Assembly: GCA_051005235.1 (NCBI GenBank)
Contig: JBPCJO010000045.1
Location: forward strand, 1,024 to 65,023
Direction: 5' to 3'
DNA length: 64,000 nt
Origin: Candidatus Saccharimonadales bacterium
GTDB taxonomy: Bacteria > Patescibacteriota > Saccharimonadia > Saccharimonadales > 2-12-FULL-41-12
Below are positions 1,915 through 61,759 of the stretch, piece after piece. Within the stretch, counting starts at the first letter, position 1; each line of letters starts with the position of its first letter. The position numbers and the translations under genes are program-made. The notes under the pieces are model-generated. The model was not told the origin of the DNA, did not search any database, and worked only from the letters and a program-made list of their open reading frames with translations.

Positions 1915-3144
1915 CTAAATTATTATGACTTCTTTAGGTTTTGTATCTTGTGACGAGGTAGGTAACTTGATGGTAAACTTTGTGCCTTCGTTGATTTTGG
2001 AGGTTACGTCGATGCTTCCGTTGTGCAAATCTATAATTTTCTTGACCCAGTATAGGCCTAGGCCGGTTCCTGGCGTTGCCACAGAAAGTGGATTATCAAT
2101 GCGCGAAAATCTTTTGAACAGTTTCTTTTGATCTTTTTTGAGTATCCCTACGCCTGAGTCATCGATGCTTATGGTGGTTTGCGTTTTAGTCTGCTTAAGG
2201 CTGATTGTTATTGTCGCGCCGTTTTGCGAGTATTTGCTGGCGTTATCAAATAAGTTGTCTAGTACCATTCGCATCAGCTTAGTATCGAAGTCCGCGTTAA
2301 CACGAACGCCTGGCTTGTTAAACACCACGTTCTGTTTGCGCGCGTCAAATGTAATCACCTGTGCCAGCATAACGTCGTCGACCAGGTTAACGACATCGCA
2401 GCTAGTCTTTTCTAAGTAGACTTTCCCGGCGTCTACCCGGGCTACCCTTAGCAAATCTTCAATTATTTCTAATTGCCGGTTGTTGCTGAGGTTAGCATTT
2501 TCTAGCATATCCATTTGTTTTTTAGACAGCTTGCCCGCATAGCCCTCACGCAAAATCCCAATATACTGCTTAACAATTGTGGCCGGAGTACGGAGCTGAT
2601 GTGAGGCGAGAGCGATAAATTCATCTTTGGCGTCGCCGAGCGCATTTAATTTACGGTGCTGCTCGATTAAACCGGCGTTCATTTTGTTGGTATCGGCCGT
2701 AAGTTGTTTTTGCTCGGTAATATCTTGAAAGGCAAGCAGTATGAGCTGCTTGCTATCTATTTGCCGGGCGTTCAGCATCATCGTTTTGAGCCCAATGTCG
2801 GGGAATTTATGCGTAACTTCAAAGTCGTTAAACACTTTATGTTTTGGCAGTATGTTTTCTAGCAGCTCAACAAGCTTCGAAGACTTCCATTGGTTGTTGC
2901 CAAGTTTATAAATTAACTTGCCCTCGGTCTCTATTTTTATTACTTTGAATGTCTTATAAAAAGCCGTGTTTGCAGTTACGACGCACAGTTTTTTGTCCAA
3001 AATGATAAAAGGCTCTCGTATTGTGTCGGTAATTTCCTGATAATATACTAATAATTTTTTAAGTGTTTCAATGCTGCTGCTTTGGCGGTCAATTTTTTTC
3101 GCGATATTCTTAGTTAATTTAGCGGACATTCTTAACAGCACCAA
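1915..3144 (-). CDS. Cytoplasmic PAS-domain sensor histidine kinase (no adjacent response regulator)
   Basis: 409 aa. H-box ASHQLRTPAT, N-box DNLFDNASKY and G-boxes DDSGVGI / GTGLGLYWVKKII are present. The N-terminal part is PAS-like and has no TM segment. Confidence 0.85.
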   Translation of the reverse strand: MVLLRMSAKLTKNIAKKIDRQSSSIETLKKLLVYYQEITDTIREPFIILDKKLCVVTANTAFYKTFKVIKIETEGKLIYKLGNNQWKSSKLVELLENILPKHKVFNDFEVTHKFPDIGLKTMMLNARQIDSKQLILLAFQDITEQKQLTADTNKMNAGLIEQHRKLNALGDAKDEFIALASHQLRTPATIVKQYIGILREGYAGKLSKKQMDMLENANLSNNRQLEIIEDLLRVARVDAGKVYLEKTSCDVVNLVDDVMLAQVITFDARKQNVVFNKPGVRVNADFDTKLMRMVLDNLFDNASKYSQNGATITISLKQTKTQTTISIDDSGVGILKKDQKKLFKRFSRIDNPLSVATPGTGLGLYWVKKIIDLHNGSIDVTSKINEGTKFTIKLPTSSQDTKPKEVIII

Positions 3145-3304
3145 TTCTGTAGCGTCTGTAACGCTAAATCGAAATTTAGATATCTATGGTCATAGTCCAT
3201 GAACTGTTAACGCCTTTATAACTACTTAGTATGCCTTTTTGATGAACTATGTCTATGAAATACCTGACAGAATTTTTACGATATTTCGAACCTGGAATGT
3301 CTGT

Positions 3305-4105
3305 TTAGCCGAAAACTCTCTGGAATATCCAAATAATTGCAATGGTAGAGATAATGACCGCGACAATCTTTATGAGTAGTGGGTACCATGATTTGTTGCG
3401 TAGTAGGTAAATTACCGGTAGCGCCAGGGCTATGACAATTAGCTGGCCAAATTCGATACCAATGTTGAACGCCAGTAGAGATGAGACGAATTTATCGTCA
3501 GGCACATTTATCTCTTGCAAGAGCCCCGCAAAACCTAAGCCGTGAAACAAGCCGAAGAAAAATATTATGCCCAATTTGGACTTGGTATTTTTTATATATT
3601 TGTTATGCCTGAAGAAAACGGTGGCAATCGCCATGACAGCTATGGACAACGCAATTATCGGCTCGACAATCCTTGAACTTAATACCAACGTGCCAGTGCC
3701 TGCTAATACCAGGGTGAGGCTGTGCGCAAGCGTAAAGGTAAGGGTGTAGCGTAGAACATTCGCGACACCGGCAAATACCAACAATAGCGATAGCACAAAC
3801 AGAACATGATCCAACCCGCTCAAGATGTGGTGCACGCCGAGCCGTAAAAAGTCATAAAAGTTGTCAAAAAAGTTGGTATCTTGTTTGATAATTCTTATAA
3901 CGTCTTCTTGATTTTTAACTTTATCAGAAAGCTCTGGTGCGTTGCCTTCGATGTACTGCTTAATCTCTTCGGGCGAGGCATCGGGATTATTTTTTATATA
4001 GTCAGTCACGTTCTGCGGCAAAAGCTCGTGGGCCGATGCTAAAGCGGGCGTAAGTATAAAAAAGAAAGCCAGGGGTATAAATGCGTAAAGAATTATTTTT
4101 TTCAT
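3305..4105 (-). CDS. HupE/UreJ family membrane protein
   Basis: 266 aa. Signal peptide, then HHILSGLDHVLFVLSLLL, then several TM helices, as in HupE/UreJ. Confidence 0.7.
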   Translation of the reverse strand: MKKIILYAFIPLAFFFILTPALASAHELLPQNVTDYIKNNPDASPEEIKQYIEGNAPELSDKVKNQEDVIRIIKQDTNFFDNFYDFLRLGVHHILSGLDHVLFVLSLLLVFAGVANVLRYTLTFTLAHSLTLVLAGTGTLVLSSRIVEPIIALSIAVMAIATVFFRHNKYIKNTKSKLGIIFFFGLFHGLGFAGLLQEINVPDDKFVSSLLAFNIGIEFGQLIVIALALPVIYLLRNKSWYPLLIKIVAVIISTIAIIWIFQRVFG

Positions 4106-4109
4106 GATC

Positions 4110-5435
4110 TTATTTCAAGCGTTGTATTGCTTCGTCCGCTTCTTTCTTGTCGAGTAGTGAAAAATGTGATTCCAAAAAGTACGTATCGAGGCTTGTCGCT
4201 TTTTGCAGGTACATTGTAGCTTGGTCTTTCTGGCCTAGCTTTTCGGCGATTCTGCCGGCATGATACAAGATTACTGGCTCATGCTGACCTAAGATTAAGG
4301 CTTTACTAATATTTTCTTCAGCAGCAGTATAATTTTTGTTTCGATAGTAAGCCCAAGCTAGTGCGTCAAAGCTAAATATATTTGGACGAATAGCTACAGC
4401 TTTCTTAGCTAGTTCTAGTGATTGCTCAGCTTGCATATCTCGCTGAGACAAATATAACGATCGTTCATAGTCAGTATTGACGTTGGCTTTACTAGATTCA
4501 TCAAAAGCCAGATTTGCTAAATAATAACGGCTGTCGGCCTTATCGGCATCATTGTTTGACGCATAAACATCACCTAGGTTTGCGGCATACTGCGCAAGAG
4601 GCAGCCTAGTAAAAGCCTGATTGAAATAATCAACCGCTTTGTCTTTATCGCCGCGAGCAAAGGCTAGCCTACCAAGAGCCTCCAGCGCTGGTGGATAATC
4701 TGGTTCGGTCCGTAAGGCTTGCATGTATGTACGCTCGGCTTGGTTAAGATCAGACCTGGCTTGCAGCTTGCCGAGTTCTACTTGGCTGAAGGCAACATTT
4801 TCAGGAAACGACGAACCGGCACTGATTGCACTAACAAGTGCAGCTTTAGCACCGTCGATTTCACCGTATAATTCTCGCAAGTAAGCCACTCGGTTAAAGG
4901 CGCTGAGTTCAGGCTTTTTGTCTATCATTGTCTGAATAGATTGAGTAGCTTGATCATACATGCCGAGCTCTAGCTGTCCGTCGCCAATCAAGCCGTAGTA
5001 GGCTGCTTTATCAGGATTGATCTTGCTGGCCTTTTGCGACAACATCAGGCCTTTACTAAAGTCATGTAGACCGTAAGCCACACTAGCTTGTGCGGCAACC
5101 ACAGATTCATTATCAGGATTGATCTTGCTGGCCTTATCAAGCAACTCGTTACAACTACTATAAAGTGACGTGTCTGCTGTTTGACGCAGCTTTTGAAGAT
5201 AAAGTTGACAAAGGTCGGCATAACGAGTCGGATTTTGTTGATCGTTATCAAGACGGCTTTGTGCTTCTTTGATTAGTTTATCGATTTGATCAGTTTGAGC
5301 GGCTGTATTATTTCTATCTCTGGTTGAGTTTTGGATGGCGTAGATACTAAGCACAGCTAGCGGCAGTAAAACTGCGACTATTACGACAACTAACCATTTG
5401 CTGCGACCAATTTTATAAAAAACTTTTTTCGACAT
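4110..5435 (-). CDS. Membrane-anchored tetratricopeptide-repeat protein
   Basis: The track ORF begins at a TTG (5471). I prefer the ATG at 5435 (MSKKVFYKIG...). One N-terminal TM, then repeated A..Y...G..y....y..A...y..AL TPR-like units. Confidence 0.7.
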   Translation of the reverse strand: MSKKVFYKIGRSKWLVVVIVAVLLPLAVLSIYAIQNSTRDRNNTAAQTDQIDKLIKEAQSRLDNDQQNPTRYADLCQLYLQKLRQTADTSLYSSCNELLDKASKINPDNESVVAAQASVAYGLHDFSKGLMLSQKASKINPDKAAYYGLIGDGQLELGMYDQATQSIQTMIDKKPELSAFNRVAYLRELYGEIDGAKAALVSAISAGSSFPENVAFSQVELGKLQARSDLNQAERTYMQALRTEPDYPPALEALGRLAFARGDKDKAVDYFNQAFTRLPLAQYAANLGDVYASNNDADKADSRYYLANLAFDESSKANVNTDYERSLYLSQRDMQAEQSLELAKKAVAIRPNIFSFDALAWAYYRNKNYTAAEENISKALILGQHEPVILYHAGRIAEKLGQKDQATMYLQKATSLDTYFLESHFSLLDKKEADEAIQRLK

Positions 5436-7895: not shown

Positions 7896-8465
7896 TTACT
7901 TTATTTGAATACTAGAATAAAGTTTTTCGAAGTCTTCTTTGGTTTTATCGGTAATATTTTCACGATTATTTACTAGCTCCAGCCTTACTATATATGTATC
8001 GGTCTCAATTAAGTATGTGTGTGTTGTTTGGCCGGATCTCTCTATTGTTAACTTTAAATTCTTGCGACCATTTTTATCAATTTCTGTACACTCATTGTTA
8101 TTAACAGAGAGGTCTAAGTATACGCTTGTCTCATATGAGCTGCATCGTAGGGATGAGAGCGGATTAACCGTCATCCTGACGAGAGCATTTGGTGGCCCAT
8201 TACAACTCGGTTTTTGTGTATTGGGGACAATGAACAGTATTATGTCTTCTCTCTCGGGGCAAGGTTGTATTCCCCATCCGTCAGGCAGTCGATAATTTAC
8301 TAAAGAATTAATATTTACTTCATTCTTTGCAACGCTCGGTGATGTACCGCTGGCATGCTTAGGCACGCCTTCTGGATCGCCTAAATCGTTACCCACAATA
8401 ATACCTATACCAAAAATTATTAAAACTAATAACACTAATAAAACTATCTTGCGAGCATATTTCAT
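7896..8465 (-). CDS. Hypothetical N-terminally anchored protein
   Basis: 189 aa. N-terminal TM helix KIVLLVLLVLIIFGIGIIVG, four Cys, no recognisable domain. Bracketed by the two repeat copies. Confidence 0.5.
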   Translation of the reverse strand: MKYARKIVLLVLLVLIIFGIGIIVGNDLGDPEGVPKHASGTSPSVAKNEVNINSLVNYRLPDGWGIQPCPEREDIILFIVPNTQKPSCNGPPNALVRMTVNPLSSLRCSSYETSVYLDLSVNNNECTEIDKNGRKNLKLTIERSGQTTHTYLIETDTYIVRLELVNNRENITDKTKEDFEKLYSSIQIK

Positions 8466-8615: not shown

Positions 8616-8801
8616 CTACAATTTTGATTGTCTGATGATCGACTTAAATGTGCCGAACGGTATTTCTTTCTTTGAGCTGGGCACAATAACCGTAGAGGAA
8701 CCTTTCCGATATTTTGCATGACTTCCGCGTTGATGCACAAAGGCAAAACCTTCCTTTTCAAGAACTTTAATAATTTCTTTTGAGGAGGGTAGTTTAGGCA
8801 T
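8616..8801 (-). CDS. hicA: HicA family mRNA interferase toxin
   Basis: 61 aa. LPSSKEIIKVLEKEGFAFVHQRGSHAKYRK is the typical HicA dsRBD-like signature with a catalytic His. Confidence 0.85.
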   Translation of the reverse strand: MPKLPSSKEIIKVLEKEGFAFVHQRGSHAKYRKGSSTVIVPSSKKEIPFGTFKSIIRQSKL

Positions 8802-9015
8802 GTTTTAGCCGAAGAGTGTGAAGAGTAGGATGGCTCACCTCAGTCTTAATAGACTGTATGGGAGTATCTTCAAGATAGAGCTCTAGCGCCTCGTGTAAGT
8901 TAGCCAAAGCTCCTTGCTCAGACTCACCAAAACTTGATACATCAATATCTAGGCATTGAGCAACAAAGTACTTGCCTTCCTGATACACAACTGTTTGTAG
9001 AGCTAGAGCTTTCAT
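8794..9015 (-). CDS. hicB: HicB-like antitoxin (UPF0150 fold, no DNA-binding extension)
   Basis: 73 aa. YQEGKYFVAQCLDIDVSSFGESEQGALANLHEALELYLE is HicB-like. Overlaps hicA by 8 nt. Confidence 0.7.
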   Translation of the reverse strand: MKALALQTVVYQEGKYFVAQCLDIDVSSFGESEQGALANLHEALELYLEDTPIQSIKTEVSHPTLHTLRLKHA

Positions 9016-9124
9016 ACTATGTAATTATACCACCAAAGCACCAGATTATACTCGAGCCTACCAACACCGATATAAATAAAGAAGAAACCAGAACATAGGT
9101 TCCAGTTTCATCTGTTTTATGCGA

Positions 9125-9320
9125 CTTGGTAGCGGGGGCAGGACAGCGCACTTTGTGCTTTTCCACTCTGGCATGCTCAAAGCAAGCTTTTGCGCGTGTC
9201 CTCGCTCCACCGAACCTGCGACTATCATCTTTTGCTAGCGCAAAATTTGAGTCGCAGAACCGGAGCCTAGTCTCAATGACCAAGAAAAAAGCTCCAACCT
9301 TTCGGCTGAAGCGTCTTTCT
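9125..9320 (-). repeat. tRNA-fMet-linked non-coding module ending in a duplicate of the tRNA 3' end
   Basis: 9127..9144 is an exact copy of 9321..9338, the tRNA 3'-terminal 18 nt including CCA. The 11-mer 9211..9221 copies tRNA 9340..9350. About 95 nt are homologous to the tRNA-Lys module, including the 21-nt identical core 9172..9192. Confidence 0.8.
9285..9312 (-). terminator. Intrinsic terminator of tRNA-fMet
   Basis: On the tRNA strand the sequence is GCTTCAGCC-GAAA-GGTTGGAGC: a 9-bp stem (two G-U pairs) with a GNRA loop, followed by TTTTTT. Confidence 0.7.
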
Positions 9321-9395
9321 TGGTAGCGGGGGCAGGACTCGAACCTGCGACCTTGTGGTTATGAGCCACACGAGCTGCCACTGCTCTACCCCGCG
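9321..9395 (-). tRNA. tRNA-Met (CAU), initiator type
   Basis: Hand-folded cloverleaf of CGCGGGGTAGAGCAGTGGCAGCTCGTGTGGCTCATAACCACAAGGTCGCAGGTTCGAGTCCTGCCCCCGCTACCA. It has a 1:72 mismatch (C1xU72), A11:U24, an acceptor stem nearly identical to E. coli tRNA-fMet, and an encoded CCA. Confidence 0.85.
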
Positions 9396-9456: not shown

Positions 9457-10407
9457 TTAGGCCGGTACGGCAACGTTTAGCTCACTATCTAGGAACTCGT
9501 GGTAGAATTTTAGCTCTTTTTGGCACTGGTCGCGCGAAGCAATAACTTTATGGTGTCGGGCATTTAGATACTTGCCAACAAATGAGATAGAACTCAGCCA
9601 GTTCGCGCTGCGTTGTCGGGTTGAGCGCGCTCTGTATAGCCTGGATGTTTCGGCACGGTGGGCGGCTTTTATGGCGGTGCTCCCCAGGTCTAAGTTGATT
9701 GTGGCTGTATCGATAATTTCATGTGTCAGTTCGTCGAAAACCTGGCGTTTCTTATCTAAATTTTTAGGCCCGTAGTGGGCGCTCCAATGCTTGTCTCCGT
9801 TTCTTTTGGCCTCGCGGTAGAGTGGTATTAGTACAGTATTACGAACGGTTATGAAATCGTTTTCTAGCTCGTTTAGGCCGAGTACTTTGCCTACAAGGGC
9901 ATGCCCGGCCGATCGCCCAACTCTTGCTTCTACGCACATAGCGTCAGGGTTGTTCTCGTTTGACCGCCTAGTTTTTGCCATAACGTGCTTGGCTAGGTCT
10001 GACGCGCTTCTGGCCACGATGTGAAACTCGTGGGCGGGAAATACGACGCCAATTCCCCTTGCAGTACCGGCCGACCGAACTTTGACAAGTTGTTCGGTAG
10101 AAGGATCCCGAAAGCGCGGATCGCGCGGATGGATATATAATCCTGAACGAAGAGTCTCGGGCTGGCTGTTGAAGAAGTTTTCGGGACCAACTTGAAGCAG
10201 AGTATCTTGAGTTGTGGTAACCGAATCGTTAGGCCCGAACTGTTCGCCGTAACGGCTAGCCAGTTTCATTAGGGTGATGCGGCTTTGAGCTGATGGAAGC
10301 TGTAGTGATTCTAGCTCATTGGTAACTCGTCCGTGTACAGCATCAAGTTCTGCCACGACGGGGTAGAGAGCCAGCGGTTCTTGGCTGTATTGGGGAACCT
10401 TGGGCAT
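9457..10407 (-). CDS. Hypothetical protein (316 aa)
   Basis: Long ORF with no motif I recognise. Its start overlaps the upstream gene's stop (TAATG). Confidence 0.6.
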   Translation of the reverse strand: MPKVPQYSQEPLALYPVVAELDAVHGRVTNELESLQLPSAQSRITLMKLASRYGEQFGPNDSVTTTQDTLLQVGPENFFNSQPETLRSGLYIHPRDPRFRDPSTEQLVKVRSAGTARGIGVVFPAHEFHIVARSASDLAKHVMAKTRRSNENNPDAMCVEARVGRSAGHALVGKVLGLNELENDFITVRNTVLIPLYREAKRNGDKHWSAHYGPKNLDKKRQVFDELTHEIIDTATINLDLGSTAIKAAHRAETSRLYRARSTRQRSANWLSSISFVGKYLNARHHKVIASRDQCQKELKFYHEFLDSELNVAVPA

Positions 10408-18103: not shown

Positions 18104-18180
18104 TGGTAGCGGCGACTGGATTTGAACCAGTGACCTCAGGCTTATGAGTCCTGCGCTCTAACCAACTGAGCTACGCCGCC
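18104..18180 (-). tRNA. tRNA with CAU anticodon (elongator Met or lysidine-dependent Ile2)
   Basis: GGCGGCGTAGCTCAGTTGGTTAGAGCGCAGGACTCATAAGCCTGAGGTCACTGGTTCAAATCCAGTCGCCGCTACCA folds as a cloverleaf. Position 1:72 is paired (G-U) and CCA is encoded. tilS is present in this window, so an Ile2 identity is possible. Confidence 0.85.
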
Positions 18181-37795: not shown

Positions 37796-37872
37796 GGGCC
37801 CGTAGCTCAGCCGGTTAGAGCACCTGCCTTTTAAGCAGGGTGTCCTGGGTTCGAGTCCCAGCGGGCCCTCCA
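37796..37872 (+). tRNA. tRNA-Lys (UUU)
   Basis: GGGCCCGTAGCTCAGCCGGTTAGAGCACCTGCCTTTTAAGCAGGGTGTCCTGGGTTCGAGTCCCAGCGGGCCCTCCA is a clean cloverleaf with CCA encoded. Confidence 0.9.
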
Positions 37873-38056
37873 AATAAAAACCGCCAACATTTCGCTACCA
37901 GTTGGCGGTTTTTATTTGGAGCATCACTTGAGTCGAGAACCCAGATCTTTTGCGAAGCAAAGGAGGGTTCGGCGAAGAGAAGCCACGCACAAAAGCTTGC
38001 TTTGAGCATGGCTGAACGAAAGAAGGACGAAGTCCGCTGTCCCAGCGGGCCCTCCA
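37873..38056 (+). repeat. tRNA-Lys-linked non-coding module ending in a duplicate of the tRNA 3' end
   Basis: 38039..38056 is an exact copy of 37855..37872. GGGTTCG at 37965..37971 copies the T-arm at 37847..37853. The 21-nt core 37990..38010 is identical (reverse complement) to 9172..9192. Confidence 0.8.
37876..37914. terminator. Bidirectional intrinsic terminator
   Basis: AACCGCCAAC (37879..37888) pairs with GTTGGCGGTT (37901..37910). It is flanked by AAAAA upstream and TTTTT downstream. Confidence 0.8.
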
Positions 38057-38138: not shown

Positions 38139-38414
38139 ATGAAAACAGCTATACTAAATGTAAAAATTGATGAACAAGTAAAAAAGCAGGCGCAAGCCGT
38201 AGCTAGTTCTTTTGGTATTCCACTCAGCACACTCGTAAACGCATACCTTATGGAGCTGGCTGAAACGGGTCAGATACATTTTAGTGCAGTAGAGGTTATG
38301 ACACCTCAAATGGAAAAAATAATTGGGAAAGCTGAGAAAGAGATAAAAGCAGGCGATACTGTTGGGCCATTTAATACTGCCGAGGAGGCGGTTAATTATC
38401 TGAAGAAACTTTAG
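38139..38414 (+). CDS. RelB/DinJ family antitoxin
   Basis: NVKIDEQVKKQAQAVASSFGIPLSTLVNAYL is a ribbon-helix-helix DinJ-like N-terminus. Confidence 0.7.
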   Translation: MKTAILNVKIDEQVKKQAQAVASSFGIPLSTLVNAYLMELAETGQIHFSAVEVMTPQMEKIIGKAEKEIKAGDTVGPFNTAEEAVNYLKKL

Positions 38415-38415
38415 T

Positions 38416-38685
38416 ATGCTGTATCATCAAATTGACTTTACTAAAAGTTTTACCAGGCAGTTTAGACCCTTGCGAGAGAATCAGAAAAAACGCTTTTACG
38501 AGCGCTTGGAATTATTTAAGAAAAACCCCCATGATAGAGTCTTGCGTGACCATGCCCTAAAAGGCAAGTACAAAGGCTATCGTAGTGTTGATATTGAGGG
38601 CGATTTGCGTGCCTTGTATTATGTGAAAGGAGATAGGGTTGTAATTTTTGCATTTATTGGCTCACACGCCCAATTGTACAAATAA
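38416..38685 (+). CDS. RelE/YafQ family toxin
   Basis: 89 aa. HALKGKYKGYRSVDIEGDLRALY is a YafQ/RelE-like motif. It starts 1 nt after the antitoxin stop. Confidence 0.7.
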   Translation: MLYHQIDFTKSFTRQFRPLRENQKKRFYERLELFKKNPHDRVLRDHALKGKYKGYRSVDIEGDLRALYYVKGDRVVIFAFIGSHAQLYK

Positions 38686-38721: not shown

Positions 38722-39252
38722 ATGAATTCCACCGAGTTATTATTAAAAAAGTATCCCAACGTAAAAGTAGTCGAAGTTAGCCAAGAGCTTGATCAAGATA
38801 CCTTTAACGCCCAAAAGATTAAGCATGAACAGCGACAGGCTGAAGGCGGTGCTATTGGCACAGTCTGGCTCGAAGATGGCACAATTGTACTCACCAAGCG
38901 TTCAGGCCTACACGCAGGCTGGGCTTTAATCGGTGGAACTGTCGAGAACGGCGAAGCATTTGATGACGCCTTTTTACGTGAAGTCAAAGAAGAAATAGGC
39001 ATAAAAGCAACAATCGGACGCATAGTTATGCTAGAGCGTAAGATCTTTACTTCTCCAAATGCAGAGCAATTGCCAATGAATGTGGCGGTAATCGAGGCTC
39101 ATGCAGAAAAAGGCGAACAAATTACAAAAACAAAAGATGCTGAAATTGAAGGTCTTGAAGCCAAGGCTTTTGCAATTAATAGTTTGCCTTCTGAAATGAT
39201 ACTTAACGACTTGAATAAACTTGAATTGGTTGTTGCAGCCCGGCGAGTATAG
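38722..39252 (+). CDS. NUDIX hydrolase
   Basis: Nudix box GGTVENGEAFDDAFLREVKEEIG. Confidence 0.75.
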   Translation: MNSTELLLKKYPNVKVVEVSQELDQDTFNAQKIKHEQRQAEGGAIGTVWLEDGTIVLTKRSGLHAGWALIGGTVENGEAFDDAFLREVKEEIGIKATIGRIVMLERKIFTSPNAEQLPMNVAVIEAHAEKGEQITKTKDAEIEGLEAKAFAINSLPSEMILNDLNKLELVVAARRV

Positions 39253-39371: not shown

Positions 39372-39794
39372 TTACTTTGACTTATCATTAGGGAAGACGG
39401 ACATAAAATCTTTTCGACCGGTTCGCTTATTTTCCTTAATTTGTACATAAAAGTGAAAACCGTCTTTAGTCTCGCCAAAAAACCGGTGTAGACCAATGTT
39501 CATATTGCCGTAATTATAGATTGTATCGGGACTACACGTTGTGTTTCGAATGAGGTCAATCGCGCAAGGAAAGAGTTTTGTGCGGCGTAGTTGATCGCCC
39601 AGACGTTTTTGTTTTAGATGTTCCCAAAACTGATTGATAAAAATCTTATCCTTTTTAAAATACTGTGATTTTACATACGCTTTGCGTCGCGGTGTGCGTT
39701 TTTGTATTTTATGATATTCGTAACGAGCGGCACGAAAAATACTTGCATGCGACGTACCGGGTAGTCGGCTGCACTTTGATTTGTAAATCTTCAT
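39372..39794 (-). CDS. Hypothetical highly basic protein (140 aa)
   Basis: ORF only. Lys/Arg-rich, with no motif I can name. Confidence 0.5.
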   Translation of the reverse strand: MKIYKSKCSRLPGTSHASIFRAARYEYHKIQKRTPRRKAYVKSQYFKKDKIFINQFWEHLKQKRLGDQLRRTKLFPCAIDLIRNTTCSPDTIYNYGNMNIGLHRFFGETKDGFHFYVQIKENKRTGRKDFMSVFPNDKSK

Positions 39795-44527: not shown

Positions 44528-45166
44528 CTAAGGCCTCACATATGCATTAAGCGTTAAGTTAAAGTTGAGGGCGGTTCCAGTGTTATTTGGTTGTACATTA
44601 ATGCCATCGACGTGGGCTGTTCGACGATTCTTCTCGAGGCTTTCAAGAAACTTCAGAAAATTCTGGTATGAGACCTCACCATCTGAATCAACTTGAATGG
44701 GTAGGGTAAAGACTCCAGCTATACCATCAACTGCTTTGAGCTGGCTGTCGACTGGCTTTTTAGGTGCTGCTGGCGCCGCGCTTTCGTTGCCTTCGGTGGG
44801 TGCTACTACTGGCGCTTTTGGTACTGGAGCACCGAGGGTCGAAGTCTCGAAACTGATGGATTTAATGGGAATATTATTTTCTTTCGCAATTTTAACAATC
44901 TCGAGAACTGTTTTCGCCTGATCTTTATCTTGAGGCACGACACTACGAGCAATCACATCAAGATCACTATACCGCGCGACGTCAGCTTTTGCTTGAATGA
45001 GCGCTCTTGACTGTGCCTCAATGGTCGCACTCTCAAGTTTTAAGTCTTGCACTTTTTTTGACTCTGTTTGGAGAATTGCGTTACCGCCAACGGTTCCAGC
45101 AATTATCATGCCGATCAACAACACTAATAGGGCAACCAGGCCATAGAAGTACTTCTTAGCTGTCAT
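44528..45166 (-). CDS. pilO: PilO-like type IV pilus assembly protein
   Basis: 212 aa. N-terminal TM, a coiled coil and an alpha/beta C-terminus. Assigned by its position after pilN. Confidence 0.6.
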   Translation of the reverse strand: MTAKKYFYGLVALLVLLIGMIIAGTVGGNAILQTESKKVQDLKLESATIEAQSRALIQAKADVARYSDLDVIARSVVPQDKDQAKTVLEIVKIAKENNIPIKSISFETSTLGAPVPKAPVVAPTEGNESAAPAAPKKPVDSQLKAVDGIAGVFTLPIQVDSDGEVSYQNFLKFLESLEKNRRTAHVDGINVQPNNTGTALNFNLTLNAYVRP

Positions 45167-45807
45167 GGTCTGGCTCCTGGTTGTTTTGTTTCTGTTGTCG
45201 GTGGAGTTATATAGACATAGGAATTATTTTTACCAAATAATGCCCTCAGGTTGACATCACAGGGGTAACGCCTTGTTTGTTCAGAAGTTGTGCTACTGCT
45301 ATTCGTGGTTGTGCTAGCACAATTAATACTATTAATATCAGCTTTTTCAAAAACACCATTTTTTGGATCTTGCAAGTTTAATTGTAACCTGGCTCCAGCG
45401 TCAAAATCGACTGCTTGGGCGTTTAACTGGATACCTCCCTTTACGGTATCAATTTTTAATGATTGAAGCGCAGTACCGGCTGGTAACGCCGAGCCAATTT
45501 GTCTGATTAGTTTTGAAAATAGAATTTCTCGTGACAATACTTGAACCGTTAGTTTTGTGTTGGTTGATATCTCTTCTACTCGCTTTTGGGTCTCTTCGAG
45601 TTGCTGTGATTTTAAGCCTTCTCTGGATTGGTTTACCTGAGACGTGTAACTGTTCACTGATTGTTTCATGTAGATTAATCCGCCAATCACGATAAATCCG
45701 ACTCCTGTTAATGAAACTATGGCAGCGATTATCCAGGTGCGAAGTTTGGTGTTACGTCGAGCGTACATAATATCTTGCTTAATGTCGTGAGGTAAGAGAT
45801 TAATCAT
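45163..45807 (-). CDS. pilN: PilN-like type IV pilus assembly protein
   Basis: MINLLPHD is the conserved INLLP PilM-binding N-terminus, followed by one TM. Confidence 0.75.
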   Translation of the reverse strand: MINLLPHDIKQDIMYARRNTKLRTWIIAAIVSLTGVGFIVIGGLIYMKQSVNSYTSQVNQSREGLKSQQLEETQKRVEEISTNTKLTVQVLSREILFSKLIRQIGSALPAGTALQSLKIDTVKGGIQLNAQAVDFDAGARLQLNLQDPKNGVFEKADINSINCASTTTNSSSTTSEQTRRYPCDVNLRALFGKNNSYVYITPPTTETKQPGARP

Positions 45808-46964: not shown

Positions 46965-47354
46965 ATGGTAAAAAATCAAACCGGGTTTACGCTAATTGAG
47001 CTTGTAGTAAGTATTACCCTAATCGGTGTCGTAATTGGCAGCACCTTGACATTGTTCCTGACAATCCAGAGTACACAGCGCCGAACAGTTTATCTGGAGA
47101 CAGCTACCCGATCTGCCCAACGCAAAATGGAATCGCTCCGAAACAATAATTACAATAATTTAGTTGCCGGCCAGACGCTAAACTTTACTGCCGAATTACC
47201 AGTAGAACTAAAAAACCGAACAGGTAGCGTATTAGTCAGTGAGCCGACCCCGGGTTTAAAACGGATCGATATAACGGTTGAGTATTACGAAGGTACTAGC
47301 CGCCAAGAAGTTAAGTTAAGTTCTTTGGTAGGGATTTTAGGAATTACCCAATGA
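46965..47354 (+). CDS. Minor pilin (prepilin-type N-terminal cleavage/methylation domain)
   Basis: MVKNQTG/FTLIELVVSITLIGVV. Confidence 0.8.
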   Translation: MVKNQTGFTLIELVVSITLIGVVIGSTLTLFLTIQSTQRRTVYLETATRSAQRKMESLRNNNYNNLVAGQTLNFTAELPVELKNRTGSVLVSEPTPGLKRIDITVEYYEGTSRQEVKLSSLVGILGITQ

Positions 47355-48016
47355 TCAAAGTGAACACAACCAGCAAAGGCTTTACCCTTGTAGAAACAGT
47401 CATCTCTCTTACAGTTGTAGCTATTTTGCTGACCGTTATTGCTAATTTTTCGATTAGCACGCTTAGCCAAAGTTCAGTTGAGGCAAGTCGGGCTAACTTA
47501 TTGTCGGAATCTCAGATTGCTATGGATCGAGTTATCAACGATATTCGACTGTCGTCGGGGGCAGACGAGAGTAACCGCTACGCCGACCCAAACAACCCAG
47601 ACGGTAGTTTAGCTTGGGAATCCACTTCCGGAACGCTTGTCCTTGCTACAGCCGTTCAAGACGCCAGTAATACGATTATTTTTGCCGACCCAACCAAGTA
47701 TATATCCGAAAAGAATAATGTTGTTTACTTCGTGAAAGATAAAGTTCTGTATAAGCGGGTACTGGCTTCTCCTGTGGCTAATAATGCTGCTGTAACTACT
47801 TGTCCGGCAGCAGCGGCTACGACAGTTTGTCCGGCTGACCGTGCCTTACTAAGTAATGTTACAAATTTCAGCATCAAGTACCTGAATGGTGATGATCAAG
47901 AAGTTATTCCAACCGAAAGCCGATCTATCGAACTAACTGTCCAAACAGCAGTTTCTAAATTCAGTCAAAATATAACCAGTAACTACACAACAAGGGCGGT
48001 ATTTAGAAATGATTAA
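47351..48016 (+). CDS. Minor pilin (PilW-like)
   Basis: TTSKG/FTLVETVISLTVVAIL. Confidence 0.75.
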   Translation: MIKVNTTSKGFTLVETVISLTVVAILLTVIANFSISTLSQSSVEASRANLLSESQIAMDRVINDIRLSSGADESNRYADPNNPDGSLAWESTSGTLVLATAVQDASNTIIFADPTKYISEKNNVVYFVKDKVLYKRVLASPVANNAAVTTCPAAAATTVCPADRALLSNVTNFSIKYLNGDDQEVIPTESRSIELTVQTAVSKFSQNITSNYTTRAVFRND

Positions 48017-49412
48017 TAAGTTGCGCTTCCCACTGATCAAAAATCAGCGCGGAATGATATTAGTGACTTTGATTGCCATGATGACGGCTTTCGCTATAAT
48101 CGGACTGGCGCTTAGCAGTTACACTACAAGTCAGTATAGCCGCACCAGAACAAATGTATTTATCGCCAATGCGACTCAAGTAGCTGAGGCTGGTATCGAA
48201 AATTCTTTATATCAGATTAACCAAGATGAAACATTCGCCGGTTTTACGACTGATCAGGAGTTTTTCAATAATGCTACCCAAGGCCGAGCGGTTTACACGA
48301 CCGAGGTTATACCTACGGCCGACAGTAATGCTAAAATTGTTACTTCAACCGCTAAAATCTATCGGCTATCTGACTTGGTTAAGCCAGTGAGCATCCGCAA
48401 AATAAAGGTAACTATTGTTGGGACTAACTCGGCTGGATACTCTGTATATAGTGGTCCCGGTGGACTTAATATAAGCGGTAACGCCACTATTACGAACACC
48501 AACGTTTATGTAAATGGCAAAATCAATTTAAGCGGTACCGCCGGAATTGGTACAAACGCTCAGCCAGTTAGTGTTTCGGTTGCGAATATAGCCTGTCCCA
48601 CAGGCGCTACACCCGGCCCAACCTACCCAACGCTATGTACAACTGGCGAACCAATTAGTATGACTGCTAATACTAAGATATACGGCACCGTCTGTGCGAC
48701 CGGCCAAACCAGTACTGGACCCAATAACAATATACAGCCGGGTAACGGTGGAGAAGGCCTTAAACCTGGCTGTACGGCACCGGCAGTTTCCTCGATTACC
48801 TACGACCGTGCTGCCCATATTGCCGCGGTAACTACTACCGGGTCGGCTAACAGCAGTACCTACGCTTGTAGCGGAAGCAGTTCTAAAACATGGCCGGCTA
48901 ACCTTAAGCTAACGGGCAACGTGTCAATAAGCGGAAACTGCAACTTACGCATTACCGGTAACGTCTATGTCACCGGTAATCTTAATATCACCGGTGGTAC
49001 AATTACCATTGACGACGCACTAGGAGCTACACGTCCGGTAATAATAGTTGACGGCACGGTTAGTGTAAATGGTAATACCAAGCTTATAGCTAACTCATCA
49101 GGAATTGGTATGCACCTGATTAGCTTTAAAAGCACCGGGGCTTGTAGTCCAAATTGCACGGCTGTAACTGGTACTGACCTTAAGACGTCGCAAGACCTAC
49201 AAACGGTTACGGTAAGTGGCAATGCGAATATGCCGGGGGTAATCTACCAGGCGTACTGGTCTAAAGCTGTTCTATCTGGTACTGGTAACATTGGCGCAGC
49301 GATTGGCCAAACAATCGATCTAAGCGGCAACGGTACGGTTATCTTTGGTACGATTCTCTCCTCGGGCAATCGTTCGTGGAGCGTCACGAGCTACCAGCAA
49401 GACTTTGATTGA
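48009..49412 (+). CDS. PilX-like large pilus-associated protein with parallel beta-helix-like repeats
   Basis: The N-terminus KNQRGMILVTLIAMMTAFAIIGLAL is PilX_N-like. The C-terminus has repeated (T/S)GN(V/A)xIxG units (LKLTGNVSISGNCNLRITGNVYVTGNLNITGG). Confidence 0.65.
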   Translation: MINKLRFPLIKNQRGMILVTLIAMMTAFAIIGLALSSYTTSQYSRTRTNVFIANATQVAEAGIENSLYQINQDETFAGFTTDQEFFNNATQGRAVYTTEVIPTADSNAKIVTSTAKIYRLSDLVKPVSIRKIKVTIVGTNSAGYSVYSGPGGLNISGNATITNTNVYVNGKINLSGTAGIGTNAQPVSVSVANIACPTGATPGPTYPTLCTTGEPISMTANTKIYGTVCATGQTSTGPNNNIQPGNGGEGLKPGCTAPAVSSITYDRAAHIAAVTTTGSANSSTYACSGSSSKTWPANLKLTGNVSISGNCNLRITGNVYVTGNLNITGGTITIDDALGATRPVIIVDGTVSVNGNTKLIANSSGIGMHLISFKSTGACSPNCTAVTGTDLKTSQDLQTVTVSGNANMPGVIYQAYWSKAVLSGTGNIGAAIGQTIDLSGNGTVIFGTILSSGNRSWSVTSYQQDFD

Positions 49413-61279: not shown

Positions 61280-61705
61280 ATGAATAATCTTGAAATTATT
61301 GGTTTAGCTCTATGGTGGGCCGAAGGCAGCAAATCACGACGTGATAAAAGATGGAAAAATGCTGTTTCTTATCCTATCGAAATAACCAATACAGACCATC
61401 GAATTATAAAAATATTCTTAAAATATATGATCCAAGAAATGAAGATCGATCCTAGACGTTTTAAGTTACAGCTACAAATTCACGAAGGAGATGACCAAGC
61501 CCAACTAGAAAAATACTGGTCTGAAGTTACAAATATACCTAAAAAACGGTTTAATAAAACAATTGTCAGGCCGCTCGGAAATAAATCAGGAAAGAGTAAA
61601 GGCACTTGCAAGGTTCGTTTTTCAGACAAAATGGTATATAATTCGCTGCAGCAACAATTAAATTTACTACTGGAAAGTATTCCGGGGTGTGGCGCAGTTG
61701 GCTAG
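61280..61705 (+). CDS. Putative single-motif LAGLIDADG-like homing endonuclease; 3' end runs into tRNA-Pro
   Basis: IIGLALWWAEGSK fits the h-h-G-h-h-h-h-(D/E)-G-S pattern. 141 aa and basic. The stop TAG at 61703..61705 lies in the tRNA D-loop. Confidence 0.4.
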   Translation: MNNLEIIGLALWWAEGSKSRRDKRWKNAVSYPIEITNTDHRIIKIFLKYMIQEMKIDPRRFKLQLQIHEGDDQAQLEKYWSEVTNIPKKRFNKTIVRPLGNKSGKSKGTCKVRFSDKMVYNSLQQQLNLLLESIPGCGAVG

Positions 61706-61759
61706 CGCGGACGGTTTGGGACCGTCAGGTCGAAGGTTCGAGTCCTTTCACCCCGACCA
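61683..61759 (+). tRNA. tRNA-Pro (UGG)
   Basis: CGGGGTGTGGCGCAGTTGGCTAGCGCGGACGGTTTGGGACCGTCAGGTCGAAGGTTCGAGTCCTTTCACCCCGACCA folds as a cloverleaf, with CCA encoded. Confidence 0.9.

Follow-up and report, generated by a model that had tools for sequence, protein, structure and literature searches.

The window analysed here, 64,000 nt of a Candidatus Saccharimonadales contig (JBPCJO010000045.1, positions 1,024 to 65,023; assembly GCA_051005235.1), carries a tRNA-fMet gene and a tRNA-Lys gene, each followed on its own strand by a short module that ends in a second copy of the 3' end of that tRNA (Table 1). We describe the two modules, the family to which they belong and the fold that the family conserves, and weigh what such a module might be.

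Two tRNA genes in the window carry a duplicated 3' end

Behind tRNA-fMet, nucleotides 59-76 of the tRNA, CCA included, recur exactly as the last part of the module (the tail). This 18-mer, GTCCTGCCCCCGCTACCA, occurs exactly twice in the window, both times on the minus strand, and was matched in none of 100 shuffles; the identity continues for two more nucleotides (AG), giving 20 nt, and the copies lie 176 nt apart, with no real open reading frame (ORF) between them. Reading from the tRNA, the interval holds a terminator hairpin with a GAAA loop (9291-9312), a TTTTGC/GCAAAA hairpin and a second copy of an 11-mer from the tRNA, TCGCAGGTTCG, which is restricted to 9340-9350 (inside the tRNA) and 9211-9221; exactly 66 nt then separate this copy from the tail. 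The repeat with its flanking bases and spacing, the GNRA-loop terminator, the hairpin and the 66-nt segment had all been reported in a preliminary description of this DNA, made without database searches, and each was found as described.

The corresponding 18-mer of tRNA-Lys, GTCCCAGCGGGCCCTCCA, likewise occurs exactly twice in the window, once in the tRNA and once at the end of its module. The preliminary description had held the two modules to be homologous, with a common 21-nt core and each with the 18-mer of its own tRNA, and this was confirmed: the core is confined to 9172-9192(-) and 37990-38010(+), and the alignment of the two modules had a mean column identity of 75%. For none of these repeated sequences (both 18-mers, the 21-nt core and the 11-mer) was a chance occurrence expected from shuffles. 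Two further tRNA genes lie in the window, tRNA-Met at 18104-18180(-) and tRNA-Pro at 61683-61759(+), and the module search, which included a covariance model, found no module at either.

The window otherwise encodes type IV pilus genes, RNase Y, a sortase, RecA/RecX and a DnaK operon. No integrase, transposase, reverse transcriptase (RT) or other mobile-element gene was found among 47 window ORFs scanned with Pfam, namely nearly all those of at least 180 amino acids and the small ORFs adjoining both modules; for this set, the earlier statement that the window has no integrase or RT ORF holds.

A family of tRNA-linked modules in Candidatus Saccharibacteria

Comparison of the window with other loci, individually labelled L015, L047 and so on, brought the family to at least 28 copies, the window pair included. 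An 18-nt piece of the core, searched against one genome per prokaryotic species, gave 29 loci, of which 24 were chance matches in coding DNA; the remaining five had the full module and were all metagenome-assembled genomes of Candidatus Saccharibacteria. A metagenome scan added about 24 copies, and one divergent copy, behind tRNA-Arg at L047, was found via its direct repeat and afterwards matched by the covariance model. All taxonomically labelled copies come from Candidatus Saccharibacteria, a restriction that partly reflects the search by the conserved apex of the module. The viral collection contained no module, all 17 of its matches to a 16-mer being chance matches in coding DNA. Across the window and 33 loci, the covariance model found a single unit per tRNA.

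The hosts comprise at least 11 tRNA species (fMet, Lys-ttt, Lys-ctt, Asp, Asn, Ser-cga, Ser-gga, His, Arg-gcg, Gln and Phe), and the tail of every module derives from its own adjoining tRNA, so that the matching of module and tRNA given for two loci in the preliminary description extends to the whole family. When one tRNA type varies in sequence among genomes, as do Lys (CAGCGGG, CAGTGGG or CACTGGG), Asn and Ser-gga, the tail varies with the adjoining gene. Near-identical scaffolds (the central part of the module) stand behind different tRNAs, namely fMet and Lys in the window, Ser-cga and Ser-gga in one metagenome, and Arg and Phe at L053 and L074. From the end of the tRNA to the end of the repeat, the copies span 154-199 nt, with the exception of L051/L063 (696 nt), where a Nudix ORF is inserted. 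Rfam, run on the window and seven module-bearing loci at gathering and permissive thresholds, returned tRNAs only and no family matching the module, and the literature yielded no description of such a module in Saccharibacteria or Patescibacteria. As far as sequence comparison goes, the window modules represent a hitherto undescribed family of structured elements linked to tRNA genes in Candidatus Saccharibacteria.

Throughout the family, the tRNA is followed by a terminator (term1), a short spacer, a hairpin (P0), the scaffold and the tail. Term1 is a long hairpin with a U-tract, in which NCCA and an A-tract pair with the U-tract and UGGN; in the window and at most loci, the tRNA terminators are long, perfect hairpins of bidirectional type that sequester the encoded NCCA, and between genomes the central stem changes by compensation with this sequestration retained. 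The 5' arm of P0 (IR-L), typically GAGAACCC or CGAACCC, is antisense to the 5' strand of the local T-stem plus TTCG; its 3' arm (IR-R), for instance GGGTTCG, repeats that segment of the tRNA in sense, and both arms follow the identity of the local tRNA. In the window, the IR-R of the fMet module matches tRNA nucleotides ~46-57 over 12 nt, and the complement of the Lys IR-L matches 8 nt (CTGGGTTC) of the tRNA-Lys T-arm; at L048, IR-L is a 14-nt exact antisense copy of tRNA-His. As the sense copy measures 6-12 nt across the family, the 11 nt given for it in the preliminary description stand for 9211-9221 and not as a general length. An exact 6-mer complement of IR-R lies upstream of it in 7 of 24 copies against 0.35 expected; a looser test of P0 allowing G-U pairs had no power, and the exact-complement test was used instead. 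The fMet IR-R can also pair with the tail, as a T-stem.

The scaffold, 55-82 nt long, opens with a conserved purine-rich joint (J1, GYGNAGYGARG), continues with helix P1 and the near-invariant core GC-R-CAAAAG-CUUG-CUUUGA-GC-A, and closes with a second purine-rich joint (J2, GAGYGGAARAG in the commonest subtype), a variable hairpin P2 and usually CGCT. Since the tail starts at T-loop nucleotide 59, the scaffold occupies the position of A58, right after the five-nucleotide UUCGR turn, which we take to be where the T-loop motifs of other RNAs accept insertions. At least three scaffold subtypes diverge downstream of P1. The divergent tRNA-Arg copy of L047 has a longer AT-rich hairpin for the apical stem and retains the GCGCA.../...CGAGCA internal loop.

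The module fold is conserved by compensatory change

RNAalifold recovered P1 and the apex from the family alignment, and each of the five P1 pairs has both sides changed in 7-10 sequences. When pairs were counted over the alignment with the T-stem (IR-R with the tail) included, 87.6% of cells were paired versus 27-37% with slid partners, the T-stem pairs (77% paired) being inherited from the tRNA and hence not independent evidence; the covariation score was 0.39 versus less than 0.09 with slid partners, and the observed values were reached by none of 500 shuffles. P0 and P2 vary among copies in sequence and length, with the hairpin form retained.

The two orthologous Ser-cga loci L047 and L054, which have neighbouring genes in common, allowed a direct comparison of module and surroundings and gave the best evidence for a functional module. 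Identity of their upstream and downstream flanks was 0.61 and 0.64, close to the 0.62 obtained by shuffling, whereas the tRNA-Ser was 0.89 and the module 0.90 identical, and the differences within the module were compensatory pairs in the inner P0 hairpin and in P1. A neutral scar would decay along with its flanks, so this conservation argues against one. Because the module is as conserved as the tRNA amid randomised flanks, with compensatory changes, these data indicate that it is a functional structured element and not a scar.

Other folds were tried and rejected. A tRNA-like minihelix or pseudoknotted acceptor stem had no consistent partner, J1 being conserved whatever the tRNA and without acceptor covariation, and neither a hammerhead nor a kink-turn fitted the three-way region or the P1 internal loop when compared by eye with their consensus. 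For the first part of the tail, no complement other than IR-R was found in the module, the longest averaging 3.9 nt, which is the shuffle level.

Table 1 Features of the tRNA-fMet and tRNA-Lys loci of the window (strand is given relative to the window; modules are listed from the tRNA outwards).
Feature	Position	Strand	Basis
tRNA-fMet (CAT), CCA encoded	9321..9395	-	ARAGORN; Rfam tRNA, 63.8 bits
First copy of the 18-mer, tRNA-fMet nt 59-76	9321-9338	-	exact match search
term1, fMet: long hairpin, GAAA loop, U-tract; ACCA and A-tract pair with U-tract and UGGU	9279..9324	-	
fMet module, whole	9127-9278	-	
fMet IR-L, TTCTGCGACT: P0 5' arm, antisense of T-arm 5' half; pairs with AGTCGCAG of IR-R	9250..9259	-	
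fMet inner P0 hairpin, TTTTGC-GCTA-GCAAAA; length and sequence variable in the family	9230..9245	-	
fMet IR-R, AGTCGCAGGTTCG: P0 3' arm, sense copy of tRNA nt ~46-57 (T-stem 5' strand and TTCG)	9211..9223	-	
fMet scaffold, 66 nt, in place of A58	9145..9210	-	
fMet J1, GTGGAGCGAG: first scaffold part			
fMet helix P1	9196-9200 with 9169-9173	-	
fMet invariant apex, GCGCAAAAG-CUUG-CUUUGAGCA, caps P1	9174-9195	-	
fMet J2, GAGTGGAAAA: after P1 and apex, before P2			
fMet P2 hairpin, GCAC-AAA-GTGC, then GCT	9148-9158	-	
fMet tail, exact second copy of tRNA-fMet nt 59-76 with CCA	9127..9144	-	
term2: second terminator-like hairpin (9084-9109) and T-run, 17 nt past the tail	9074..9109	-	
tRNA-Lys (TTT); nt 59-76 at 37855-37872	37796..37872	+	ARAGORN, Rfam
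term1, Lys: stem takes in CTCCA and A-tract against U-tract and TGGAG	37868..37921	+	
Lys module, whole	37922-38056	+	
Lys P0: IR-L CGAGAACCCAG; inner hairpin CTTTTGC-GAA-GCAAAG; IR-R GAGGGTTCG	37934..37971	+	
Lys scaffold, 67 nt: J1; P1 AGCCA/TGGCT; apex 37987-38008; J2; P2 GGAC-GAA-GTCC; GCT	37972..38038	+	
Lys tail, exact copy of tRNA-Lys nt 59-76	38039..38056	+	

Predicted transcription signals, repeat boundaries and candidate empty sites

Read on the tRNA strand, the loops and joints of the module comprise a gCUUGc tetraloop, GNRA loops, many C-GNA-G triloops and A/G-rich single strands; read on the opposite strand, the same parts become CAAG, UUC or UAC loops and pyrimidine tracts. At the fMet locus, the tRNA's own promoter-like site is the sole one, with none on the opposite strand, and the module is flanked on the tRNA strand by terminator-like hairpins (9291-9312 and 9084-9109). 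Judged by eye, such a hairpin follows soon past the tail in ~9-10 of 22 copies. The minus strand bears a weak promoter-like site just past the Lys tail (38138-38111; 9 of 12). The promoter region of the window tRNA-Lys is similar to those of loci L075, L088 and L089, none of which has a taxonomic label; that the window belongs to a Saccharibacteria genome would follow mainly from all labelled carriers of the module being of that group.

The inner boundary of the repeat is constant at nucleotide 59 in most copies (nucleotide 58 in L047-Arg), and its outer boundary varies. Tails end before CCA in L015, L053 and L074 and are largely decayed in L048 and L057; in three others the repeat extends beyond CCA, with an extra 8 nt in L047-Ser, ~45 nt in L077/L064 (terminator included) and ~55 nt in L047-Arg.

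Relatives of the fMet locus were recovered via its 316-aa neighbour protein, and those reaching past the tRNA were distant (43-52% protein identity). In three of them (L082, L085 and L086), tRNA-fMet is followed by a terminator and no module. Because the terminators of module-less L082 and L086 resemble term1 of the window (ACCAAGAAAGAC...TTCAG...), term1 is probably native to the tRNA gene, which suggests that the module insertion lies beyond it; the sequence past these terminators is unalignable, the relatives being too diverged. Lys relatives were recovered via a 158-aa neighbour protein. One of them, L088 (a 1.19-Mb contig; neighbour protein 76% identical), has a terminator and then a gene for a large serine recombinase behind tRNA-Lys, and no 3' module.

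Genes beside the modules and related duplications

No recurrent protein family, be it integrase, TnpB, IS110 recombinase or RT, was found in the flanks of 27 copies. Two readings were set aside because the protein that each calls for does not lie nearby: a TnpB/omega-RNA-like one, with the module as scaffold plus 3' guide, and one as an IS110 bridge RNA, whose geometry the sense and antisense pieces also misfit. Large serine recombinases (Resolvase, Recombinase and Zn_ribbon_recom domains) lie by tRNA genes or modules at L067:2850-4130(+) and L088:4752-6428(-), and L067 is the sole copy with a serine recombinase nearby. The tRNA-Ser-gga module of L064 is likewise the sole one with an RT nearby, a 352-aa RVT_1 protein ~120 nt downstream (3617-4675(-)) with retron-like NAxxH and VTG motifs and YADN instead of YADD, followed by a 380-aa AAA_5 ATPase (2521-3663(-)). 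Downstream of the L020 module, translations read by eye gave a methylase-like ORF and an HNH-containing ORF; other copies are followed by housekeeping genes.

Both window modules are followed by a type II toxin-antitoxin pair preceded by a promoter-like site (8616-9015(-) and 38139-38685(+)). The fMet-side pair consists of a HicB-like ORF at 8794-9015 (weak DUF7387 match) and HicA at 8616-8801; on the Lys side, RelB (38139-38414) and a YafQ/ParE-type toxin (38416-38685) are followed by a Nudix ORF (38722-39252). A third tail copy that would bound downstream toxin-antitoxin, restriction-modification or RT genes as an island was looked for and none was found. Window ORFs of 140-467 aa without Pfam match include those at 39372-39794(-), 7896-8465(-), 44528-45807(-) and 47351-49412(+), among them a 140-aa basic ORF converging on the Lys-side cassette; the 316-aa neighbour of tRNA-fMet (9457-10407) also has no Pfam match and only 10 relatives in the protein collection.

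Some copies are interrupted or displaced. The tRNA-Asn module of L051 (3703-4398(+)), like that of L063, has its IR-L and IR-R separated by a ~130-aa Nudix-like ORF that comes with a promoter-like site and brings the unit to 696 nt. The tRNA-His module of L048 (480-930(+)) has a decayed tail and an intact second tail 570 nt downstream; its scaffold-tail junction (GCGGAGCGACCYCATCAT..) is present as a direct repeat of 21 nt on either side of a coiled-coil ORF of 77 aa that has a promoter-like site, and the arrangement looks like a cassette inserted at this junction. Further cases (L067, L060 and L073/L076) have no upstream tRNA; on the left, these modules are bounded by a degenerate fragment resembling a tRNA 3' end, which has the tail's own NCCA as its end and is preceded by non-tRNA sequence.

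Duplications were also seen at tRNA 5' ends. In L088 (4598-4716) and L089 (3771-3889), both relatives of the window tRNA-Lys locus, a mirror-image feature was found: the leader and tRNA-Lys nucleotides 1-19 (to D-loop G19) are duplicated ~118 nt upstream of the complete tRNA, and the insert of ~100 nt starts with a GCAGC-UUG-CUGC hairpin resembling the apex of the 3' module and contains an antisense D-arm copy (CGGCTGA). The window tRNA-Lys is without this feature. In L074, a tRNA-Phe 5' fragment (86-125 in module orientation; nucleotide 1 to ~40, ending in the anticodon loop) lies 103 nt upstream of the complete tRNA-Phe (189-264), whose 3' module has a truncated tail.

The module as a candidate trailer RNA

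The reading that we favour, at a probability of roughly 0.45, is that the module is a tRNA-trailer RNA with a 3' end mimicking a tRNA, similar to the RtT repeats found after tyrT in Escherichia coli (Rfam RF00391). It is favoured because of the purifying selection on a covarying fold and the tRNA-strand loop motifs, and because of the position between the tRNA promoter and a second terminator, with no associated protein gene. Among the three hypotheses of the preliminary description, likeness to the tyrT-distal repeats is the one best supported, in the sense of the same order of parts and not of Rfam membership.

On the trailer-RNA reading, the module RNA would be a domain of the tRNA's own transcription unit, made by read-through of term1 and ending, in many copies, at the second terminator. 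The sense T-arm half would switch partners, pairing either with IR-L as P0 or with the tail, the latter state being a T-stem whose loop bears the scaffold in the A58 position. The tRNA-identical 3' end would let the enzymes of tRNA 3' maturation and repair define and protect the end of the RNA. The tail itself (in young copies the trailer too) would arise by duplication of the tRNA 3' end and then stay matched to the tRNA. The sequences themselves establish the family and its anatomy, the covariation of the helices, the purifying selection, the association with many tRNAs and the RtT-like build, whereas transcription of the module, activity from the tRNA strand, tRNA-like 3' processing and any cellular role are inferred; the conserved fold could be that of an RNA or of folded single-stranded DNA.

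Several observations weigh against the trailer-RNA reading. A strong intrinsic terminator, term1, stands between tRNA and module with no promoter-like site between them, and module transcription would therefore depend on read-through. The predicted folding energies of the two strands do not differ and leave the strand undecided, P1 contains both G-U and A-C mismatches and does not discriminate either, and the assignment of activity to the tRNA strand thus relies on the loop motifs. No cis partner for the acceptor part of the tail was consistent across the family within the module, so that the acceptor strand would not form a tRNA-like acceptor helix; RtT repeats, by comparison, pair their tail with a 10-nt upstream complement (GGGGAAGGAT, the outer stem in Rfam) that the modules are without. 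The tail may not be essential, since in some copies (L015, L048, L053, L057 and L074) the scaffold is intact although CCA or the greater part of the tail is gone. Total direct repeats of 72 nt in L047-Arg and 63 nt in L077/L064, both including the trailer, also fit mobile DNA, as does the patchy distribution, with modules at two of the four window tRNAs and none at the related loci L082, L085, L086 and L088. Finally, the conserved apex served to find every copy except one, and its invariance over 22 nt is therefore partly an artefact of that search.

Alternative explanations

The main rival, which we hold to be rather unlikely, takes the module for a non-autonomous integrative element in miniature, or for an att-type site that is being maintained, with a recombinase acting in trans. 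Recombination between the tRNA gene and a circle, composed of [body] and [tRNA nt 59-76 +/- trailer], would take place in the T-loop, where integrases that target tRNA genes classically act, and the conserved hairpins would perhaps be a recombination arm (folded single-stranded DNA, like integron attC) or an element-borne RNA; C-GNA-G triloops are especially stable in DNA. The inner boundary fixed in the T-loop with a variable outer one, repeats that take in the trailer as a Campbell-type insertion gives (72 nt in L047-Arg, 63 nt in L077/L064), apparent empty sites in distant relatives, a patchy distribution, near-identical scaffolds behind different tRNAs, gene cassettes in or next to modules (the L048 small ORF, the L051 Nudix ORF in P0) and large serine recombinase elements at tRNA genes of the clade (L067, L088) all speak for it. 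Against this, no recombinase recurs beside the modules and the window has none; the unit measures ~150-200 bp and is cargo-free in almost all copies; the window body lies beyond a native-looking term1 (cf. L082, L086) and not at the T-loop; the sense T-arm half stands 66-80 bp from the tail and does not adjoin it as a core-type site would; the viral collection gave no match; and purifying selection, seen with compensatory changes, acts on orthologous copies that stay in place, which is unexpected of scars. Of the first hypothesis of the preliminary description, that the modules are scars or miniature derivatives of tRNA-integrating elements, the integrative part is compatible with the repeats starting in the T-loop, the long repeats, the apparent empty sites and the recombinase elements of the clade, whereas the lack of a recurring recombinase and the tRNA-level conservation with its compensatory changes speak against a scar. 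The trailer-RNA and mini-element readings are compatible, since such a module could spread as DNA and act as RNA. A bolder proposal, distinctly unlikely in our view, is that RtT-type units are cross-phylum, T-loop-homing RNA-structured elements, or else a second tRNA 3' third within a read-through transcript. In the homing version, the targeting parts (the T-arm halves and nucleotides 59-76) could be rebuilt from the local tRNA, with A58/N59 as the site; in the other version, the 3' part of the tRNA itself could be exchanged for that of the module (a T-arm whose loop bears the scaffold, then the 3' strand of the acceptor and CCA), as an alternative or two-piece tRNA or as a sensor of tRNA 3'-end integrity. 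Either, if true, would give the 45-year-old RtT repeat a mechanism.

The remaining explanations have the evidence mostly against them. A reverse-transcription origin, to which we give little credence, would make the tail (in young copies also trailer and terminator) a cDNA of the 3' end of terminated pre-tRNA, copied up to a presumed modified A58, joined to scaffold RNA and inserted behind the terminator. The 58/59 boundary is indeed that of the 18-nt retroviral primer-binding site (PBS), where it is set by m1A58, the blocks of L047-Arg and L077/L064 span from nucleotide 58/59 to the terminator end and hence to the 3' end of the primary transcript, the window insertion lies just past term1, and a retron-type RT with an AAA_5 ATPase directly follows the L064 module; yet an RT stands beside only one of ~28 copies and is absent from the window, IR-L and IR-R are left unexplained, and no poly-A or target-site features were seen. 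Decay of a tandem tRNA copy until T-arm and 3' end are all that is left, a common assumption for the tyrT-distal repeats, accounts for IR-R and tail as local nucleotides ~46-57 and 59-76 and has a parallel in the E. coli tyrT-tyrV tandem with RtT units between and after, but it is largely refuted and very improbable: one scaffold stands behind at least 11 unrelated tRNAs and is unlike the 5' two-thirds of the local tRNA, the acceptor 5' strand is absent from the module, the module is under purifying selection, and an antisense IR-L is not expected from decay. Least probable of all is activity of the opposite strand, the third hypothesis of the preliminary description, in which an RNA beginning with 18 nt complementary to the tRNA 3' end, with a role as PBS or anti-tRNA, would stop at a bidirectional term1. 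The symmetry of term1 (A-tract, stem, U-tract) would permit termination both ways, the two strands have similar folding energies, and a weak promoter-like site stands past the Lys tail (9 of 12; 38138-38111(-)); but the fMet copy has no such site, loops and joints would be pyrimidine-rich (CAAG, UUC, UAC), G-U pairs in the apex of five copies would turn into C-A, the window has no RT, and in several copies the tail degrades from its CCA end, the supposed 5' end of the RNA.

Comparison with known systems

The att repeats of tRNA-integrating islands and prophages resemble the modules in being direct repeats from the T-loop to CCA or beyond, in the apparent empty sites of distant relatives, and in the recombinase-bearing elements found at the tRNA genes of this clade; the modules differ in having no integrase between or beside the repeats, an interval of 136-181 nt in nearly all copies, and in that interval a covarying structure under selection, placed in the window beyond a native-looking terminator. 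Integron attC sites, like the modules, are imperfect inverted repeats of variable length with conserved ends, keep structure over sequence, and have cassette-like genes adjoining some copies (in the modules, toxin-antitoxin pairs, Nudix and small ORFs). In contrast to attC, the modules come with no integron integrase and no array, the RYYYAAC/GTTRRRY boxes misfit in register, and the tRNA-derived parts have no attC counterpart. The PBS of retroviruses and long-terminal-repeat (LTR) retrotransposons is also an 18-nt match to a tRNA 3' end with its boundary beside A58, but the modules are tRNA-sense on the tRNA strand, have no RT, LTR or polypurine tract, and each match the adjoining tRNA, as duplication would give. 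The sponge RNA 3'ETS-leuZ of E. coli is a functional tRNA trailer; it is non-coding and lies 3' of a tRNA, and release by tRNA processing would yield an RNA in both cases (putatively so for the module), but it has neither a tRNA-end copy nor a scaffold common to several tRNAs.

The closest likeness is to RtT. The tyrT-distal 178-bp repeats of E. coli were sequenced in the late 1970s, and in the literature and the Rfam entry RtT has been treated as an enterobacterial, tRNA-Tyr-specific oddity; its tRNA-identical 3' end has reportedly been proposed to let tRNA 3'-end enzymes define or protect the end of the RNA. In the K-12 sequence used for comparison (NC_000913.3, 1286000-1288200; locus L087), Rfam found four RtT units at 133-138 bits, of which the first separates tyrT from tyrV and the other three lie behind tyrV. 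The order in every unit is ...GGGGAAGG-AU-GAGAAGCUUCG-acc-AAGGUUCGA-[68 nt, two hairpins, purine-rich joints]-AAUCCUUCCCCCACCACCA. The antisense half of the T-arm is followed by the sense half up to A58, then by an insert of ~68 nt, as long as that of the modules, and by tRNA-Tyr nucleotides 58-76; the predicted fold contains the small IR-L/IR-R hairpin. RtT units and modules therefore have in common the position 3' of a tRNA gene on the same strand, a length of ~150-180 nt, an end that copies the 3' end of their own tRNA from the T-loop (nucleotides 58-76 in RtT, 59-76 in the modules), a sense T-stem 5' strand plus UUCG(A) ~66-68 nt upstream of the tail, an antisense copy (GAGAAC...) before it that forms a small hairpin, and an insert with two hairpins and purine-rich joints. 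When the module covariance model was run on the E. coli locus, its four best matches were the four RtT copies, in register but weak (E 0.1-0.5). Conversely, RF00391 gave no match in the window at its gathering threshold of 45 bits and none at E <=10 for the fMet module and seven module-bearing loci, and the inserts had no significant sequence likeness (z mostly 0-2.6). The two also differ in arrangement: RtT units are tandem (1 + 3), follow tRNA-Tyr only and have no terminator in between, whereas modules come singly, behind at least 11 tRNAs, after a terminator and in a different phylum. By its build, the module would thus be an RtT-like variant and not a member of RF00391, and the likeness could stem either from remote common descent or from a common mechanism.

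A small point of detail touches both. In RtT (e.g. L087 1067-1198(-)), a structure resembling a T-arm, its loop 7 nt long, can be drawn from GAAGG-AUGAGAA-CCUUC, which is the Rfam consensus (K-12 has GCUUC), and AUGAGAA also stands before IR-L in several modules (L047, L049 and L054). According to a 2024 preprint (bioRxiv 10.1101/2024.07.17.603846), the mode of action of rttR is still unknown, and the tyrT-rttR region had raised coverage in a circular-DNA-enriched library under stress.

An RtT-like build in a distant phylum of reduced genomes, and on at least 11 tRNAs, suggests a general, functional decoration of tRNA genes, and RtT-like elements may be far more widespread than known. Were the modules mobile, they would be unusually small structured riders on tRNA genes. 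The family supplies many independent copies for comparative structure work, its invariant hairpin is an obvious candidate protein-binding site, and Saccharibacteria hosts are now genetically manipulable.

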